33,691 bases of DNA from a virus, in the IMG/VR virus record IMGVR_UViG_3300017765_000017. One strand, written 5' to 3'. Shown here one piece after another: positions 23,676 to 30,778 of the stretch (position 1 is its first letter; each line of letters opens with the position of its first letter). Under the pieces are notes generated by a model, which searched no databases, had not been told where the DNA came from, and saw nothing but the letters and a program-made list of their open reading frames with translations. The translations under genes were made by a program, and so were the position numbers.

Positions 23676-23963
23676 TTATTTCCTTTTCTCAAATTGTTGG
23701 CGTTTGTGCAACTCCTGTAATGTTGCTTTTGCCAATTTTCCATCTTCCACTACCTTGTGAATGTAGGTCTTAACTGCTTCCAAGTTCTGACAAAGCATAT
23801 ATAGGCGCTCTCTAGCTTCCGTGTCACCTATGCCGCTCTGCTTCCAAGCACTCGTAAATTCGTTCTCTAAATACTCAAAACTTTCTATGAATATTTCATT
23901 GCGTAATACGGCCTCTGCCTTGTCGGCTCTAGCCATCTGTTCCCTTGCTTTTCCTTCGTTCAT
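23676..23963 (-). CDS. Hypothetical coiled-coil head-module protein
   Basis: 95-aa track ORF with ATGA coupling to the upstream gene. Confidence 0.5.
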   Translation of the reverse strand: MNEGKAREQMARADKAEAVLRNEIFIESFEYLENEFTSAWKQSGIGDTEARERLYMLCQNLEAVKTYIHKVVEDGKLAKATLQELHKRQQFEKRK

Positions 23964-25120
23964 GCTAGTAACGTGTATCCTTGTAAGTTATACGGGTCTT
24001 GAAATATGCCAGCCTGTGTTCCAGCACGGCGGCGGTATTCTAAATTTGCTGCCTCAAATTCTTCCGGGGTCATAAATCCTGTGCCGTAAGTTGATGCAAA
24101 ACCGCCCAAGTCTTCTGGTGCTACATCCAGCAAGCCCATACGAGCGTATGTGCCGGGTTCATATGTGAAACCGTCACCGCCTACTGTTTCGCCTACTGTT
24201 TCGCCTACTGTTTCGCCTACGTTAGCTAGTGGTGCGGAAACACGACATGCTTGTATGTCAGCATCGAATACATAACCTTCTGGGCATTGCTGCTCTCCAG
24301 TTACTGGGTTCGTTTGCGTTGGGACGATTTCTCTTTCTGGGCCATCTCCTTGTGGCCCGGCACCCGGCCCTCTTCCAAAGCCAGTATAAACGCCACCAAG
24401 ATCTGCCTCTGTTGTGGGTTCTGGCATAAGGCTAGTAAGCAATCCAGCAATACCGGGCGTAAAACCAAGAATGCTTGGCCCTGTAAAACCAGTAACTTTT
24501 CCAGTGTCATCAAAATCATAATTATAAGCACCAGTAAAGAACGGCGAAGTAGGGTCTAACATAGCTTTCATATAAGATGGCATTGCTTTAAACTGCTCAC
24601 GAGTTAATCCAGCCATTTTTCTTGTGCCACCTATATTGCCTAAAGCCTGACTAACAGCCCTATCTAATTGGGCTTTTGTAGCTGCGCCATAGTCGGTCTC
24701 ATCAAACGCTTGCTTTAAGCCAGCAGCTTTCTCAGCCGCTCTTTTTGCGGCGGTTTCTTGTGCGAGTTTAGCATTTGCTGCGGCTATTCTTTGCCTAGCG
24801 GCTTCACCGGCTGCTTGCCTTTCTCTTTCTTGCGCTGCTTCTCTTGCTCTATCAGCGGCCCTATCTCTAGCAGCTTGCGCCGCATCTCTATCTTCGCTTC
24901 TGCCATCATAATCTCTGCCACGTCCCCCAAATCCGCCCTGAGAGCGACCAGCGTCTGGGCCGCCATAAAAAGCAGGGATACCCATTGGCCCCGGCTTTCC
25001 CGCGCCGCCGTTGTTCATAAGCAACTGTGCCTCATCTGGTGTGATGTAAGCCAGTAAGTGGTCTTGACCGCGAATATCTACGCGGCGTGGCGGATTATTG
25101 CTTTTCATCTTATTCGGCAT
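23960..25120 (-). CDS. Virion-associated protein with a conserved N-terminal LLAYITPDEAQLL...GIPAFY motif
   Basis: The motif HLLAYITPDEAQLLMNNGGAGKPGPMGIPAFYGG recurs in marine phage structural modules, as I recall. Follows the portal gene and contains an in-frame GETV tandem repeat. Confidence 0.5.
   Translation of the reverse strand: MPNKMKSNNPPRRVDIRGQDHLLAYITPDEAQLLMNNGGAGKPGPMGIPAFYGGPDAGRSQGGFGGRGRDYDGRSEDRDAAQAARDRAADRAREAAQERERQAAGEAARQRIAAANAKLAQETAAKRAAEKAAGLKQAFDETDYGAATKAQLDRAVSQALGNIGGTRKMAGLTREQFKAMPSYMKAMLDPTSPFFTGAYNYDFDDTGKVTGFTGPSILGFTPGIAGLLTSLMPEPTTEADLGGVYTGFGRGPGAGPQGDGPEREIVPTQTNPVTGEQQCPEGYVFDADIQACRVSAPLANVGETVGETVGETVGGDGFTYEPGTYARMGLLDVAPEDLGGFASTYGTGFMTPEEFEAANLEYRRRAGTQAGIFQDPYNLQGYTLLA
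24179..24220. repeat. 12-bp tandem repeat, 3.5 copies (gcctactgtttc), in frame, encoding (GETV)n
   Basis: Units at 24179-24190, 24191-24202 and 24203-24214, plus a half unit at 24215-24220. Confidence 0.9.
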
Positions 25121-25121
25121 T

Positions 25122-27134
25122 TTACACTCGCGGCAGGTTGGTTGAGATTTGTGAATCTGTTACAGCTTTCGCCATACGCAACTCAGCTTCGGCTTGCAAC
25201 TCCTGACGGCGTAGTTCCATCTCCATCGTCATTCGCTCACGCTCTAGCTGAATATCGGCTTGCATCTTCTCACGCTTCAACGCCAGTTCTGCTTTCATCT
25301 GCTGCTGCTTCATAGCAATAGCTGGATCTGGCTGTGGTGGCTGCTGCTGTTGTTGCTGTTGCTGCATCTGTATCTGCTGTGGGCTGCTAAAGAACATATC
25401 AGCGTCCTTGAAGCCACCAATCTCAGCAATGCTGCGAAGTGTGTTTACATACTGAGCCATAGTTACAACAGGATTGCTTGGCCCTAACTGCATCAATATC
25501 TGCTCTTGCTTTGCAGCAATCTGTGTCAGGAACGCAATCTTCTGCTCATCATCAGCCGTTCCAAGCCCTACCTGTACTACGACATCGTATTCGCTTGTCC
25601 ACTCACGCGGGTCAATCGGCACAAAGTTATTACGCAAACGCACAATGCGCGGCTTGTTGTCGTACTTTGTGACCAAGTGCAAAATGCCTTTAAATAGCGA
25701 TTTTACGCCTGTCTCAGCCATTGTACGCGCATAGCTTTCCAGCTTTACCTGTGCGCCACGAACTGTCGCACTAATGGCGCTGGCGGTCGTTGACTGCAAC
25801 GCATTTGCATCTAAGCCCTGTGATGCTTTGCTCATGCCTGTACGCTGCTCTTTGATGTTGTCCAGATAATCCATCAAAGGCCGTACTTCTCCGCCTACAG
25901 GTGTGCCTGTAATGGCTTGCACCATACCGGGCTGACGAGCGCGAATGATGCCGCCAGCAGTACCCTCAAGCAAATCATCTAGATTCACCTGACCTTCAAC
26001 AGCAACCATACGAGGCAGTGTGCTGGTGTAAACGCTGTCCAGATACTGACGCATCAGTGTTGACTTGATAACCTGTAGGTCTTCAGTCATGTCGTAGATA
26101 CTGCGGCCAATCAGGCGGTGTGGCATCAATACTGGCGATACCACAGCAAACGGCACATGATCGAATGGCTCGTTATGCAGAATGTGTGTGCCTTCAGCAC
26201 CGATAGCACAGATACGGCGGCGTTCAGCAATGCCATCACCGTCATAATCAACCTTCATAATGCACTCGTAGTACACGACCTCGCGCAATGTCGGGTCAGC
26301 CGCGTCAGTGCCTGTATTAGCTTCTAAATCTTGGAAACGATTTGTGCGTTCTTCATCAACATCCAGATCTGACAAACCAGCGTGTGCCTCTACCTCTTCG
26401 CGGTCATAGCCCATAGCTACCAAGTCTGACACTGTCATTGTAGTGCGGTGGGCAACGAAATACGCCTCATCTAAGCTGGTAGCACGGCGATTAACCAGAA
26501 ACTCTTCCGGCGGTACGTTTATGACCTTAATCTTGCCTTTACGCTCCGTAACACGCACAGACAGATCATACGAACTTTCAAGAGGCACCACCGTTCCGTC
26601 ATCTTCCATATACGAATTAACAACGGTTTCTTGCTGCTCAACCACTTCAACATCTGGGTTAGCCAGTAATACGGCAAGTTCGTTTTCATCAAGCCCGTTA
26701 TATTCTTCCTCAGTGACATTTTCTTCCTCTTCATAGAAATACTTGACCACACCAAGACGAAACAACAAGGCGTCCTTGAACCAGTTATACAGGATTTTAT
26801 AGCCTTCATTGTCGTGGTTGATTATGTAATTTACATAGTCACTGACTTGCTCTGCACGTTCCATATCCTCTGCCGTGCGAGCGCTAAAACGTACATATTT
26901 GTCATTGGCTGTGAAGACGCGCATCAGGTTGGGCATAATAGCCTCAACTGTGTCTGCGACTTCTGTGCTTACTACAGATGATCTACCCTCTACCTCGTTG
27001 CCGAATGGCTCGCCAAGGTAGAAGTCCATAGCGCGAATACGCTCTTGAGAAAACTCACTGTCAAAGTGGTTCAGCGCATCGGTAATTTCCGAAGAAACAA
27101 TGCTATTAAGTTTGTAATCATCCATATCTGGCAT
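25122..27134 (-). CDS. Portal protein
   Basis: About 670 aa. Position between the terminase region and the scaffold/capsid genes. Long C-terminal poly-Q plus coiled-coil extension. ATG 27134 with a GAAGGAAAAG RBS is preferred over 27164. Confidence 0.75.
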   Translation of the reverse strand: MPDMDDYKLNSIVSSEITDALNHFDSEFSQERIRAMDFYLGEPFGNEVEGRSSVVSTEVADTVEAIMPNLMRVFTANDKYVRFSARTAEDMERAEQVSDYVNYIINHDNEGYKILYNWFKDALLFRLGVVKYFYEEEENVTEEEYNGLDENELAVLLANPDVEVVEQQETVVNSYMEDDGTVVPLESSYDLSVRVTERKGKIKVINVPPEEFLVNRRATSLDEAYFVAHRTTMTVSDLVAMGYDREEVEAHAGLSDLDVDEERTNRFQDLEANTGTDAADPTLREVVYYECIMKVDYDGDGIAERRRICAIGAEGTHILHNEPFDHVPFAVVSPVLMPHRLIGRSIYDMTEDLQVIKSTLMRQYLDSVYTSTLPRMVAVEGQVNLDDLLEGTAGGIIRARQPGMVQAITGTPVGGEVRPLMDYLDNIKEQRTGMSKASQGLDANALQSTTASAISATVRGAQVKLESYARTMAETGVKSLFKGILHLVTKYDNKPRIVRLRNNFVPIDPREWTSEYDVVVQVGLGTADDEQKIAFLTQIAAKQEQILMQLGPSNPVVTMAQYVNTLRSIAEIGGFKDADMFFSSPQQIQMQQQQQQQQPPQPDPAIAMKQQQMKAELALKREKMQADIQLERERMTMEMELRRQELQAEAELRMAKAVTDSQISTNLPRV

Positions 27135-27135
27135 A

Positions 27136-27357
27136 TTACTTTTCCTTCGGCTTCTTACGCCCATACATGCAAGTGCCGCTGGCCTTACACATCTTTTTAG
27201 CTACACAACCTTTACAGGCAGAAAAGCCAACATTTTCAACAGCTTCTAATACCGCAGATGCTGAAACGGAAGCCGTCACTTTCGCTTGGGCTTCCTTGCT
27301 TAATTGCAGTGGCCTACGACGCTGTGTGCGTGGCCGCATCATCACTCGTGTGTACAT
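27136..27357 (-). CDS. Tiny basic Cys-containing protein G
   Basis: MYTRVMMRPRTQRRRP...FSACKGCVAKKMCKASGTCMYGRKKPKEK. Coupled start and stop. Confidence 0.55.
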   Translation of the reverse strand: MYTRVMMRPRTQRRRPLQLSKEAQAKVTASVSASAVLEAVENVGFSACKGCVAKKMCKASGTCMYGRKKPKEK

Positions 27358-27563
27358 CAGTCGCTTGCAAAACTTCCTGTCATAACATTTTGACGATCTT
27401 TAGCTGCCTTTCTTTCTTGAGCAGCCATACGCTTTTTTGTTGCTTCTATGCGGCCTTCTGTCATAGGGCGCATTGAGGATGGTGTTCTGCGACCAGTAAA
27501 TTTTTCAATAGCTGTAGGTCGTGGCATAGGCATAGCCATATTGCTTTTACTTTTGTATGTCAT
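27357..27563 (-). CDS. Tiny basic protein F
   Basis: 68 aa, Arg/Lys/Met/Pro-rich, with ATGA-type coupling on both sides. Confidence 0.5.
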   Translation of the reverse strand: MTYKSKSNMAMPMPRPTAIEKFTGRRTPSSMRPMTEGRIEATKKRMAAQERKAAKDRQNVMTGSFASD

Positions 27564-27748
27564 TTCTTTGCGGCCTTCTTTTTTCCAACTTTGCGAAGCG
27601 GTGATGTCATACCAACGCCTGTTGATGTTTTAACAGGAACAGATTCCGGCTCTGGTAATATAACAGGTTCTGCACCATTTTTATAGACTATGCAACGACC
27701 CGCTGGCTCACAACGCCGGGGCATAGGACAATTGTCACAAATATTCAT
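27560..27748 (-). CDS. Tiny basic Cys-containing protein E
   Basis: MNICDNCPMPRRCEPAGRC... with a KVGKKKAAKK tail. ATGA overlaps. Confidence 0.5.
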   Translation of the reverse strand: MNICDNCPMPRRCEPAGRCIVYKNGAEPVILPEPESVPVKTSTGVGMTSPLRKVGKKKAAKK

Positions 27749-27969
27749 GCTTTATTCCTTTTCTTGCCACTAGAAGTCACAGACCAGCTAACGCGCTTCG
27801 GCCCGGTTTTCTTACTAGCTTCTTTCTTGCTTATACGTCCAGCAACCTTTGCGGGTCTACAGGCTGGGTATCCACGCTTCTCGCCTTTAGAGCGACCACA
27901 GGGTTTCCCGGTCTTTACATCGACCCATTTTTCGCCGAACCATTTACCTAAACCCGCCTGTGCAGCCAT
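27745..27969 (-). CDS. Tiny basic protein D (KWFGEKWVD...GYPACRP motif)
   Basis: Internal ATG 27969 forms a TAATG overlap with the unlisted upstream ORF (MAAQAGLGKWFGEKWVDVKTGKPCGRSKGEKRGYPACRP...). Confidence 0.55.
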   Translation of the reverse strand: MAAQAGLGKWFGEKWVDVKTGKPCGRSKGEKRGYPACRPAKVAGRISKKEASKKTGPKRVSWSVTSSGKKRNKA

Positions 27970-28142
27970 TACGCTTTCCTTACACGATTGTCTGAGCCGC
28001 CCCACTTGCCGCCACGTTCTTTGTACCACTTTGCCGCATAAGCATTAGCGTAAGCTGACGGGTAAACATCAAACTTACGCTTTGCTGCTGCTATGGCTTT
28101 TTTCCACAGAGCGGGGTTTTTTGGAACTGATTTGCCAGCCAT
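27969..28142 (-). CDS. Tiny basic protein C (57 aa, not in the track; YPSAYANAYAAKWYKERGG motif)
   Basis: My own translation from ATG 28142: MAGKSVPKNPALWKKAIAAAKRKFDVYPSAYANAYAAKWYKERGGKWGGSDNRVRKA, with TAA at 27971-27969. Confidence 0.6.
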   Translation of the reverse strand: MAGKSVPKNPALWKKAIAAAKRKFDVYPSAYANAYAAKWYKERGGKWGGSDNRVRKA

Positions 28143-28182
28143 TACTTACCGTAACCTTTGCCTTTTTTCTTTCCGTATCCCA

Positions 28183-28359
28183 TTATGTCCTCTTTCTGGC
28201 CTTCTTTTTGGCCGTTTCTGAAAGTTCACCAAAATGGTACAGCCGAACAGAATTTGCTGTATGCTTTGAGCCGCTATGCAAAGAACCGTCAGGCATCTTG
28301 TGCATACCGCCAGCATACTTTGTACCATCACGAAGATAATGCGCTACACCTTTTGCCAT
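28183..28359 (-). CDS. Tiny basic protein B (MHKMPDGSLHSG motif)
   Basis: ATG 28359 (TAATG overlap) or ATG 28365. Lys/Arg C-terminal tail KKKARKRT. Confidence 0.5.
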   Translation of the reverse strand: MAKGVAHYLRDGTKYAGGMHKMPDGSLHSGSKHTANSVRLYHFGELSETAKKKARKRT

Positions 28360-28640
28360 TACCATTTCACCTTATTAGCCCAATAGGCCGCTGAACATTT
28401 ACCTTTGGCAATATTTTTCGCATGTCTTGCTTTGAAGGACTTGCGCCTCGCTTTTTCAGCCATCGTGCGAGGGTTTTTGCCGGCACCGCTAACGCCTTGC
28501 TGACCAAACCTGATTGTCTTAACGCTACCGTCTTCGCATTTTGCCACGACAACGTGGCTCTTTTTAGGATGATTAGGGGTGCGTTTGGGCTTATTATAGC
28601 CAGATACACCAGCGCGTTCCAGCCGTGGATCTCTAGGCAT
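28359..28640 (-). CDS. Small basic protein A (..KSHVVVAK..IRFGQQG..SAAYWANKVKW)
   Basis: 93-aa track ORF. Its start overlaps the upstream stop in ATGCCTAG. Confidence 0.6.
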   Translation of the reverse strand: MPRDPRLERAGVSGYNKPKRTPNHPKKSHVVVAKCEDGSVKTIRFGQQGVSGAGKNPRTMAEKARRKSFKARHAKNIAKGKCSAAYWANKVKW

Positions 28641-28920
28641 CGTATTTAACCTCTTGCACCTTCACGGATTCAAACGTGTCTTCAATCTCTTCCGTAGACA
28701 GCCCGGCTCTCAAGCCAGCATTAACTGCTACAGACATAGCCGCGTCCATCACATGCTGCCATTTTGCGTCAGAAGTGACAATAAGTCCAGCAGTGTGCAT
28801 TTCCATCATCACCACAATGGCCTCGACCATCTCTTCATATTCTTCCTGAGTTTCTTCCAACTCAACCTCAACGTCAATTTCTAAGCCGCGCTTCGGAAAC
28901 TTCAGAATATTGTCAGTCAT
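28633..28920 (-). CDS. Small acidic protein
   Basis: ATG 28920 forms an ATGA overlap with the TerL stop. Contains EIDVEVELEETQEEYEEMVEAI. Confidence 0.55.
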   Translation of the reverse strand: MTDNILKFPKRGLEIDVEVELEETQEEYEEMVEAIVVMMEMHTAGLIVTSDAKWQHVMDAAMSVAVNAGLRAGLSTEEIEDTFESVKVQEVKYDA

Positions 28921-30314
28921 ACTACCCATCCTGTGTTTGGTTTAAGACTGCGCTTGCTACTATACCCTCTAGAGTAGCCTCCTGCAATCGCACCGCTTTC
29001 AGCAAAACTCAAAACAAACGCATCAGCCACATCCGGGCTACGCTGGCCCCTACGTTTCATCTCATCTTTGCTTTCTACCTTCAGTTTACCATTAGACAGA
29101 TATTTATACCTAATGCCAGTGATCTCCTGTATCAAAGTCGCATCATTCGGGATGTTGCAATCCCTTGCCTCAAACCATTCACGGGCGTTCCAAAACAACT
29201 CATCTCTCAGCCGATTAAACCGCTCCTTCAAACTAGCAGTCTCCGACACAGAAATTGCAACGGCTGGTAAATCCAACTCGCGCAACCTGTCAGCCAAGCC
29301 AGCACCAATGCCAATAGCATCAATAAATATGCTTTGAGGACGCAACCGATATGTAGTTGCCTCAAACTCAGACAGCACAATACCAGCCATCTCCATCAAA
29401 TCACGACCCTGATACGTCTTAATCGGCTCCAGAAGCACATTATCCTGACGCTTGGCTATGGCACTCCTATCACCGCCGAATCTTGCAACGTCCACGCCCC
29501 AAACTACAGGTGCCGTGGGTGACGCTTCGACATCTCTCTTAGTCGCTTCTTCCACAAGATGTAGCGGTAACAAGACATCATCCGACTGGGTAGGGAACTG
29601 ACCCAAGACACGAACTCTGTAAACATTGCTATCTTCACCGTATTTTTCCTTCATATTTTCCAAGAACTGCTCAGAAACAGTCGTGGCATCGTGGCAACTT
29701 ACCGTCATAGTAAACCAGTTTTTACGCTGGCTATGATGGCTCTCATAGAAAAAACCCTCAGAACGTGTGGGGTTTCCGCACATTACCGTCTTAGCGCCGG
29801 GGGTAGACATAGCGCCTTCACCGACCTGAAAGACAACATCGGGAATACCTGACGCCTCTTCGCACAAAAACAGCATATTCTCTGAGTGAAAGCCTTGCAG
29901 AGCTTCTGGGTTCTCACGTCTGCTGGTTCTTGCAACGGCAAAGCTATCTGACGCACCCTTCAAGCTAATCTTGTCGCTCTTAAACTCTAGCAACTGCTTG
30001 AAACCTTCCGGCAACTGACGCGCCCATTTGTCGATCTCAGTCCACAGCACATCACTCAACTGGTGCGCCGTGTTCGCCGTAACAGCAACTTTGCACGGAT
30101 AATGCGTTATCAGCCACCACAGCACGAGCCAGCTTTGAAATGCAGTCTTACCAACACCGTGACCAGATGCAATGCTCACCTTGTCATTGTTGCCTACCGC
30201 CCTCAACGCTTCGGCTTGCCACGGCTGGGGTGTCACCTTCAAAATGCTCTCAACGAATAGAACCGGGTCGTTGTGCAGCTTTACGAGCAGATCAGTGTTT
30301 TCGGTTTTTTTCAC
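28917..30314 (-). CDS. terL: Terminase large subunit
   Basis: Walker A SGHGVGKTA near the N-terminus. 465 aa. ATGA-type overlap with the small subunit gene upstream. Confidence 0.85.
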   Translation of the reverse strand: MKKTENTDLLVKLHNDPVLFVESILKVTPQPWQAEALRAVGNNDKVSIASGHGVGKTAFQSWLVLWWLITHYPCKVAVTANTAHQLSDVLWTEIDKWARQLPEGFKQLLEFKSDKISLKGASDSFAVARTSRRENPEALQGFHSENMLFLCEEASGIPDVVFQVGEGAMSTPGAKTVMCGNPTRSEGFFYESHHSQRKNWFTMTVSCHDATTVSEQFLENMKEKYGEDSNVYRVRVLGQFPTQSDDVLLPLHLVEEATKRDVEASPTAPVVWGVDVARFGGDRSAIAKRQDNVLLEPIKTYQGRDLMEMAGIVLSEFEATTYRLRPQSIFIDAIGIGAGLADRLRELDLPAVAISVSETASLKERFNRLRDELFWNAREWFEARDCNIPNDATLIQEITGIRYKYLSNGKLKVESKDEMKRRGQRSPDVADAFVLSFAESGAIAGGYSRGYSSKRSLKPNTGWVV

Positions 30315-30778
30315 TTCTCTTCAGCCTCGCCCTCAATGGTCTTGTCAGCTAGTCGCTGTTGCTCTATCTGCGCTGCCGCCAGCTTCAACTCATCAACAAA
30401 GCTGACGACCTTATGCTCATGCTCGACCTTCTGGTTCTCGCCGTACAGCTTAGGATACAGCTTTGCCGCTCGCCACTTGTAGGTGTCGATGACCACACGC
30501 GCTTGCTGGGCATCCAACTCGCCGTACTTCATCTGCTCAATAGCGTCGTCAATGTCATCATCAATCTTCTGCGCTCGCAGTTCCATCGCAACACGATACT
30601 TGTCGCGGAACTCGCCGTCATCACGCAGCCATTTGCTGATAGTGGGAAACGTAGGCAACTTGCCACTAGAACACGCCTTACGCGCTGACAGGCCGTCAGA
30701 CACCAGTTCTATGAACAAATCTTTCTGTTCGGCCATCTGTGCGCCAGATATGGGCGCGGGGCCTCTTTTCTTCGGCAT
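30311..30778 (-). CDS. terS: Terminase small subunit
   Basis: N-terminal HTH-like region (FIELVSDGLSARKACS), then DAQQARVVIDTYKWRAAKLYPKLYGE, typical of TerS families. AAGGAG RBS. Confidence 0.7.
   Translation of the reverse strand: MPKKRGPAPISGAQMAEQKDLFIELVSDGLSARKACSSGKLPTFPTISKWLRDDGEFRDKYRVAMELRAQKIDDDIDDAIEQMKYGELDAQQARVVIDTYKWRAAKLYPKLYGENQKVEHEHKVVSFVDELKLAAAQIEQQRLADKTIEGEAEEK

Follow-up and report, generated by a model that had tools for sequence, protein, structure and literature searches.

What is a chain of tiny, strongly basic proteins doing between the terminase and portal genes of a marine podovirus? The question is raised by IMGVR_UViG_3300017765_000017, a podovirus genome or near-genome of 33,691 nt and 47% G+C (the window), in which the interval under study runs on the minus strand from TerL to the portal gene. 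An earlier note, made from the sequence, had drawn attention to the open reading frames (ORFs) of this interval, here called O1 to O7 in the order of their transcription. In our analysis the TerL–portal interval of this podovirus lineage is best explained as a late, translationally coupled 'cargo' locus that encodes mini-proteins of 13–93 amino acids (aa), which are largely disordered or consist of a single mini-domain. What is new here is an unbundled gene array with a split DUF5872, set within an uncharacterised family of multi-module proteins that is widespread among aquatic viruses.

O1 to O4 and their fused relatives

When compared with the Pfam family DUF5872 (PF19197), O3 aligns to model positions 1–42 with 18.3 bits, below the gathering cut-off of 27.5 bits, and O4 to positions 46–89 with 27.0 bits, just under the same cut-off; O3 in addition matches phrog_27331 at 3e-10 and O4 matches phrog_23735. 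A search with the concatenated O3 and O4 sequences recovered 1767 proteins, fused 132-aa forms among them. The fused proteins P0001–P0010 carry PF19197 and are 57–65% identical to O3+O4 over 90–95% of the query, and their joint, '...DNRV.KA' followed by '..GGLGKWF', falls at the exact site of a TAATG junction in the window: where the fused forms read '...DNRVNKA-AGGG-LGKWF...', O3 ends in '...DNRVRKA' and a stop codon and O4 begins 'MAAQAGLGKWF...'. Since the fused homologues join where the window has TAATG, O3 and O4 are the products of a clean fission of DUF5872, which is split into two ORFs in the window and in all 28 related loci that have the pair. O4 homologues begin M[AP]AQAGLGKWF, and in the O4 segment 'PCGR...YPACRP' the C, G, R, Y, P, A, C, R and P are each at least 90% conserved. 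Other arrangements of DUF5872 include a permuted form (P0039) and proteins whose O4 module is preceded by another kind of N-terminal module (P0066, P0088).

The same relationship extends to O1 and O2. O2, which carries an HKMPDGSLHSG motif, has no family in Pfam or PHROG, and an exhaustive search found 222 representatives of 50%-identity clusters at E<=1e-3, the module being embedded in some proteins of 170–460 aa; in roseophages CRP-207 and CRP-902 O2 homologues adjoin O3/O4. A single 403-aa protein (P0388) contains, in this order, an O4-like module, O3 (hhalign 98.6%), O2 (phmmer 1.9e-5 library-wide) and, at its C-terminus, O1 (hhalign 93.9%, E=1.5e-7), and a 307-aa protein from IMG/VR (L102) has phrog_23735 (O4) at the N-terminus, phrog_7595 (O1) at the C-terminus and an f9-type module with the N-terminal part of DUF5872 at its centre. 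Because of these two proteins, at least four of the window's mini-genes, O1–O4, are by alignment to be regarded as stand-alone versions of domains that elsewhere occur within single proteins of 270–500 aa. The earlier note had suggested looking for relatives that encode the set as one fused polyprotein, and for O1–O4 the outcome was positive. The 537-aa gene downstream of the fused protein in L102, considered as a terminase, is a radical SAM protein.

A second case of fission or fusion, with a layout like that of DUF5872, was seen in a different pair of proteins: adjacent ORFs of 61 and 98 aa in one contig (L136 5282..5694), with the motifs 'GQWSARKAQL..YKKSGGGY' and 'L.KWT.EKW...RYLP', correspond to one 131-aa ORF in another (L199 5425..5820).

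A fused relative in cyanomyovirus particles

The link to virus particles is through T4-GC119, which is encoded beside the terminase small-subunit gene (gp16) of cyanomyoviruses and has members in P-SSM2 (PSSM2_123), S-SM1 (SSM1_115) and S-BM3 (SBM3_00185). O3 is 66% identical to residues 160–206 of the S-BM3 protein (E=4e-17, hhalign 98.6%), which also holds an O4-like N-terminus and a C-terminal DUF6321, a module that accompanies fused DUF5872 in another podovirus. The O4-like module reads 'L.DWF..GW...GKC..PKC' and its scores are weak (hhalign 44% against RB11-B, BLASTP 1e-3 against P-SSM2), which makes the O4-like assignment in T4-GC119 proteins, L102 and P0388 aside, a tentative one. T4-GC119 is listed as structural, with 13 peptide counts in purified S-SM1 virions, and the S-PM2 genome lacks it (Sullivan et al. 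2010, PMC3037559 Suppl. Table 8).

The gene chain and its charge

Late genes on the minus strand of the window follow the order TerS, TerL, acidic protein, the chain of small ORFs, portal, a 386-aa protein, scaffold and major capsid protein (Table 1). Seven chained ORFs had been claimed, and reading of the sequence confirmed all of them, with the starts as proposed and with every quoted motif and Cys pattern in place; the chain nevertheless has eight members, as a micro-ORF between O2 and O3 had been missed. This micro-ORF (MGYGKKKGKGYGK) is linked to both neighbours by TAATG, and its Shine-Dalgarno sequence, AAGAGGA, lies 5 nt upstream. The other genes are joined through ATGA (TerL/acidic protein, O4/O5 and O5/O6), ATGCCTAG (acidic protein/O1), TAATG (O1/O2 and O3/O4) and TGATG (O6/O7), and the O7/portal junction, TAAtATG, with its gap of 1 nt, is the sole non-overlapping one of the chain. 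No promoter-like or terminator-like sites were found on the minus strand inside the interval, and an Rfam scan of the window gave no RNA family. The O3 homologue carries a coding-sequence annotation in phage C72C1, the only cultured relative in the phage collection, whose portal gene shows 78% nucleotide identity to that of the window.

Table 1. Late-strand genes of the window from TerS to the 386-aa protein, in the order of transcription.
Feature	Coordinates	Strand	Remarks
TerS	30311..30778	-	late gene upstream of TerL
TerL	28917..30314	-	465-aa ORF; upstream boundary of the interval
Acidic protein	28633..28920	-	95 aa from the ATGA-coupled start; 98 aa from an upstream ATG (28929)
O1	28359..28640	-	93 aa; isoelectric point (pI) 10.95; net charge +19
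O2	28183..28359	-	58 aa, or 60 aa with start at 28365; pI 10.2 (60-aa form)
Micro-ORF	28142..28183	-	13 aa; between O2 and O3
O3	27969..28142	-	57 aa; pI 10.4
O4	27745..27969	-	74 aa; pI 10.8; start ATG 27969, not GTG 28029
O5	27560..27748	-	62 aa; pI 9.6
O6	27357..27563	-	68 aa; pI 11.0
O7	27136..27357	-	73 aa; pI 10.3
Portal	25122..27134	-	ATG at 27134; phrog_1216 E=6e-157; downstream boundary of the interval
386-aa protein	23960..25120	-	after the portal gene

The extreme basicity claimed for the seven proteins was reproduced by calculation (pI 9.6–11.0, net charges of +7 to +19, lysine plus arginine contents of 19–28%), while the 98-aa form of the acidic protein has a pI of 4.2 and a net charge of -15. 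Such composition, the Arg-rich arm of O7, a summed net charge of +84 for one copy each of O1–O7 and an acidic partner that is always present are all features that would suit bulk protamine-like neutralisers which condense the packaged genome with the acidic protein as their chaperone, a role put forward in the earlier note that we consider very improbable. One copy of each protein would offset only about 0.1% of the ~70,000 phosphates of a genome of ~35 kb, and with +84 per set a neutralisation of 10% therefore needs ~80 copies of each, or ~4.5 MDa of protein against ~23 MDa of DNA. The genes are coupled to those of the low-copy TerL and portal, in a low-expression part of the operon, and not to the capsid gene, and O2, O3, O4 and O6 are dispensable in many relatives. 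Bulk protamine-like neutralisation is thus unlikely on grounds of both stoichiometry and expression context. Nothing ties the acidic protein to the basic ones, and the chaperone role claimed for it, which has its invariable presence (51/51 loci) to go on, is unsupported.

Downstream of the chain, the C-terminus of the portal protein (~25200..25330, minus strand) passes from a poly-Gln run (QQIQMQQQQQQQQPPQPD) into a charged tail that resembles a coiled coil, and is shorter in C72C1. The 386-aa protein that comes next has no Pfam or PHROG family; it begins with 'HLLAYITPDEAQLL', continues with an Ala/Arg/Glu-rich stretch and a tandem GETVGETVGETV repeat, and ends in '...GYTLLA'. It might be a constant internal or ejection protein of the lineage.

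Conservation across related loci

A TerL scan of IMG/VR gave 411 relatives confirmed by tblastn, of which the best 80, 77–100% identical, were kept. Counting the window and C72C1, 51 loci span TerL to portal, with an interval of 1.1–5.3 kb, and in this survey of synteny, which the earlier note had recommended, the layout recurs throughout. A constant frame at the TerL end consists of the acidic protein and O1, each present in 51/51 loci, and one at the portal end of O5 (51/51), O7 (called in 46/51) and a very divergent O6 (40/51). The centre between O1 and O5 is variable and may hold O2 (8/51), O3+O4 (28 loci, always side by side), f8, f9, f12, f18, a DUF5824-like protein, an FkbM methyltransferase or large polymorphic proteins. 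Overlapping junctions predominate across these loci, 103 of them being of 1 nt, 62 of 4 nt and 42 of 8 nt. The ratio of non-synonymous to synonymous substitution rates (dN/dS) relative to the window is 0.06 for O4, 0.09 for O1, 0.13 for both O3 and O2, 0.20 for O7, 0.22 for the acidic protein, 0.27 for O5 and 0.58 for O6, all of these being rough figures as dS is close to saturation. The micro-ORF too belongs to a family (M.YG.K..GKKGG..TGKYC[SG], 13–35 aa) that occupies the same position in many related loci. Given the constant frame, the overlapping junctions, the low dN/dS and the conserved micro-ORF family, the array is far beyond chance, and the mini-genes are real and under purifying selection. 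Relatives of the micro-ORF end in TGKYC[SG] or CGKYASRK. The acidic protein has no match in Pfam, and its PHROG matches are weak.

The O1 family

O1 belongs to phrog_7595, which it matches over its full length (E=1e-37), and falls short of DUF5754 (16.8 bits against a cut-off of 27.4). Its invariant residues are H24, H29, H73, W87 and W93. The earlier note had pointed to paired Cys in several of the small proteins; those of O4, O5 and O7 are nearly invariant, but the two Cys of the window's O1 are not conserved in the family, and yet they co-vary. Residues 35 and 82 form one such pair (AKCEDGS...GKCSAAYW as against AKEGD...GKMSAAYW), and residues 18 and 90 another (YNKCKRTP...ADRCKW as against YNKPKRTP...ADKVKW). 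As the two pairs co-vary independently, the Cys of each pair are suggested to lie near one another in space, as a disulfide or a metal site; disulfides would be compatible with an extracellular particle.

Homologues of O1 are found in 47 cultured-phage records, among them roseophage SIO1 and the roseophage CRP series, cobaviruses, HMO-2011, cyanosiphoviruses and a Vibrio phage, and lie on the late strand in those records that were inspected. Metagenomic clusters at 90% identity number at least 8000. In the genome collection O1 is confined to contigs of metagenome bins, whose assignments span nearly every phylum; these contigs are in effect those of phages from marine and fresh water. Two O1 homologues belong to very long bin contigs, of 466 kb (L129, in a Rickettsiales bin) and 390 kb (L132), which may represent prophages or chimeric assemblies. 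Homology between O1 and DUF6321, prompted by a common 'RRKSF.AR' motif, was rejected (hhalign probability 0.9%).

O5, O6, O7 and the micro-protein

O5 combines an N-terminal CX2CX5CX5C with a Pro-rich middle and a Lys tail, and its four Cys are kept in almost all copies; O7 has an Arg-rich N-terminus (RVMMRPRTQRRRP), the same CX2CX5CX5C, with a spacing that is retained in every listed copy, and a Lys-rich tail. O5 has no Pfam, PHROG or PDB match, and O6 and O7 have no Pfam or PHROG family. Word-indexed homology searches found 11 database clusters for O7, all from the window's phage group, and for O5 no protein outside that group. A regular-expression scan, in contrast to these searches, picked up knuckle proteins of 30–55 aa ('C.GCP.P.KC.A.GKC') beside O1 in other aquatic phage contigs, which by their motif are putative kin of O5 and O7. 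Two unrelated aquatic phage contigs carry fully overlapping arrays, one of f8, a Cys4 knuckle, f9 and O1 (L189 2411..3058) and one of f9, a knuckle and O1 (L190 4700..5264), and because of these the mini-gene array can be said to travel as a cassette beyond the window's phage group.

O6, rich in Pro, Lys and Arg, is probably disordered and is divergent except for its C-terminal peptide TG.[FY][AS]SD. A C-terminal peptide of the form [TS]G.[FY][ASC]S[DN] is common to O6 (27357..27380), f12, f30 and the micro-protein (for example in L015, L037 and L048), which are otherwise unrelated or fast-evolving, and it may be a short docking motif.

Such a peptide, in the form TG.[FY].S[DN], and the position of the acidic protein, O1 and O5 invariably, and of O7 nearly always, between TerL and portal with overlap-coupling to both, are consistent with a role of O5–O7, and possibly of the acidic protein, as assembly or packaging cofactors. 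Like the small morphogenetic factors that other phages encode beside their portal genes, these would help to incorporate the portal, dock the terminase, handle DNA ends or close the head, and would then depart, not being retained in the particle. We regard this as quite improbable. The modules O1–O4 are shared by giant viruses and by phages whose portals and terminases are quite different, a spread that fits poorly with specific contacts to a single packaging machine, and the proteins bear no similarity to annotated morphogenesis families.

Genomic context and exchangeable cargo

These modules recur within structural or packaging gene blocks of unrelated phages, which speaks for a place in the virion. 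In CRP-207 an O1-O3-O4-O2 array lies directly upstream of TerS-TerL-portal; in the T7-like P-SCSP1a a DUF6321 gene sits between the major capsid protein and gp11 (the tail-tube gene), and in a podovirus with an SU10-type adaptor modules are found between the capsid protein and the adaptor. In cobavirus ICBM2 O1 comes after the endolysin gene, and only one small gene and the terminator of the late operon follow it. Among giant algal viruses, the listing for CpV-BQ1 includes DUF5754 and DUF5872 and that for CeV-01B includes DUF5872. The claim that the motifs of the small proteins recur in marine phages and giant viruses is thus upheld by the DUF5872 and DUF5754 matches, by CpV-BQ1 and CeV-01B and by the cultured-phage records of O1. 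Because the modules occur in both phages and giant algal viruses, their distribution points to a ligand that is universal, nucleic acid for example. A neighbouring gene labelled 'Ribosomal L37ae' in MW202701 received no support from Pfam.

In relatives of the window, the slot between O1 and O5 can receive proteins of another kind. One slot protein (f67) contains a PBECR5 nuclease domain (PF18814, 1e-19, 71.9 bits, above the cut-off) and another (f24) an ART-PolyVal-like centre (PF18760, 8e-6, 27 bits against a cut-off of 31.2); f17 and f24 share the same N-terminus of ~200 aa and the same C-terminal 'QQPQGLL' and have different centres. By sequence, the architecture of f17, f24 and f67 is that of polymorphic or polyvalent phage effectors. 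No effector or enzymatic domain (ART-PolyVal, PBECR etc.) was found in the ORFs of the window.

Large polymorphic proteins of 440–760 aa occupy the O1–O5 slot in L045, L047, L053, L054, L043, L042, L060 and L001, and many large slot proteins begin or end with a G-L-L-type motif. In ~14 relatives an FkbM methyltransferase of 264–267 aa (PF05050, 6e-21) directly follows O1 (loci L015, L017-L019, L034, L043, L045, L047, L053, L060, L061, L065 and L073).

Possible internal virion components or accessory proteins

Our preferred reading, which we put forward tentatively and as falling somewhat short of an even chance, is that O1–O7 are minor internal components of the virion that bind nucleic acid and leave with it. 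The support for packaging or ejection is indirect, namely the presence of a fused relative in S-SM1 virions, the effector domains in the slot and the positive fusion test, and it is from this evidence that we infer a virion location, nucleic-acid binding and ejection for O1–O7. Co-packaged or ejected proteins had been proposed in the earlier note, and of that proposal this part is plausible in the light of the fused T4-GC119 in S-SM1 virions and of the effector domains, while the DNA condensation coupled with it found no support.

Several observations weigh against this reading. The virion evidence comes from one distant fused relative, T4-GC119, whose module order and partner domains differ from those of the window and for which Syn9 virions gave no detection (PMC3037559 Suppl. 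Table 8). In S-CBS2 the O1 homologue (gp46) has no annotation beyond hypothetical protein, beside proteins labelled structural. AlphaFold2 gave models of low confidence for O1 (predicted local distance difference test, pLDDT, 67.6) and for fused DUF5872 (pLDDT 60.4), and the best Foldseek matches of the two models in the PDB did not improve on E=0.5. Nor was there anything significant when O1, DUF5872, O5, O7 and the S-BM3 T4-GC119 were searched against the PDB by profile and by sequence. With models of low confidence, no PDB neighbour and no sequence relative in the PDB, a DNA-binding fold cannot be claimed. Regions next to terminase genes are, finally, hot spots of accessory genes and recombination in cyanophages, where the cyanomyovirus terminase-side cassette also holds petE, PTOX and gnd (PMC3037559); position alone is therefore weak evidence, and the position of the genes may reflect tolerance of insertions and not function.

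A further possibility is that the small proteins are late accessory ('moron-like') products which never enter the virion and act in the infected cell as small nucleic-acid or ribosome/RNA-binding factors that would protect or organise replicated DNA, modulate late translation or counter defence, their genes having settled where the terminase side tolerates insertions. The high mobility of O1 and its companions, found at several genome positions, the hypervariable centre of the interval, the fused cyanomyovirus relative in its cassette with petE, PTOX and gnd (PMC3037559) and the lack of a record as virion proteins for the homologues in S-CBS2 and Syn9 all speak for such a role. We nevertheless think it somewhat unlikely, as the genes are on the late or structural strand in every cultured phage inspected, the fused relative is present in S-SM1 particles and O5–O7 keep their place just before the portal gene in almost every related genome.

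If O1–O7 are indeed internal virion components, the mini-proteins would be made at low, portal-like levels from the packaging operon and would associate with one another and with nucleic acid by means of their charge, their aromatic residues and their metal knuckles. They would be loaded into the head as minor internal components and exit from it with the DNA, and the larger effector-type proteins that relatives swap into the middle of the locus would take the same route. A wider proposal, speculative and in our judgement rather doubtful, is that some ten tiny basic modules make up a toolkit of aquatic phages and some giant algal viruses that forms one DNA-bound, hetero-oligomeric internal virion complex. 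The toolkit may comprise O1, O2, O3, O4, the CX2CX5CX5C knuckle, f8, f9, the Gly/Lys micro-protein, DUF5824 and DUF6321; the complex may be a minimal 'phage chromatin' or an ejection escort, and it may be encoded interchangeably as a polyprotein, as pairwise fusions or as arrays of overlapping mini-genes, in which translational coupling would fix the stoichiometry.

A search of BFVD returned uncharacterised phage and giant-virus proteins only. In the literature we found no paper that discusses the function of DUF5872, DUF5754, DUF5824 or DUF6321, and the cobavirus and P-SCSP1u papers hold no proteomic information on small proteins. The mini-genes are among the commonest unannotated genes of ocean viromes, and gene callers regularly miss them or place their starts wrongly. 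The finding that their modules are interchangeable unites DUF5872, phrog_7595 and the O2 family, and possibly DUF6321 as well, in a single functional unit, connects this unit to a protein present in virus particles and provides a hypothesis that can be tested in phages that can be grown, such as C72C1, CRP-207, HMO-2011, cobaviruses and cyanomyoviruses. The TerL–portal interval, as a site at which effector-like cargo is swapped, should be useful in mining for anti-defence functions.

Comparison with known systems

The internal proteins IPI, IPII and IPIII of T4 are a precedent for co-packaged and co-injected proteins, and they are small, basic and late, as are O1–O7. Present in hundreds of copies, the T4 proteins have an N-terminal capsid-targeting sequence that is cut by the prohead protease, and they are injected with the DNA. 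They differ from O1–O7 in having no homology to them, and the copy number of O1–O7 is probably much lower. No capsid-targeting sequence of the T4 type was recognised in O1–O7, which have no N-terminal motif in common, and a scan of ten late genes, which did find the portal, scaffold, capsid and tail proteins, gave no prohead protease family.

In T7, gp6.7 and gp7.3 are reportedly small virion proteins that are ejected at infection and encoded upstream of the portal gene 8. O5–O7 are likewise small, and their genes immediately precede that of the portal in the late operon of a podovirus, but a relationship by sequence or profile was not found, O5–O7 matching no PHROG or Pfam family.

With four close Cys within 16 residues and Arg/Lys-rich flanks, O5 and O7 resemble a minimal nucleic-acid-binding metal knuckle. 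The zinc knuckle of retroviral nucleocapsid is CX2CX4HX4C and the cluster motif of the WhiB type is CX2CX5C. The CX2CX5CX5C of O5 and O7 departs from the retroviral spacing and has no His, and there was no profile match.

T4-GC119 shares with the window an O3 module, an O4-like module and a basic C-terminal module. Unlike the window, where these are separate genes, it is one polypeptide of 270–495 aa, its O4-like module precedes O3, and its C-terminal module is DUF6321, which the window does not have, in place of O1.

Polyvalent or polymorphic phage effectors, finally, are reported to travel with the DNA. The modules of the window differ from them in being tiny and basic and without predicted catalytic residues. 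The slot proteins of relatives, however, have constant termini and swapped centres as such effectors do, and in polyvalent effectors small modules are found both alone and fused into larger proteins, as is the case here.

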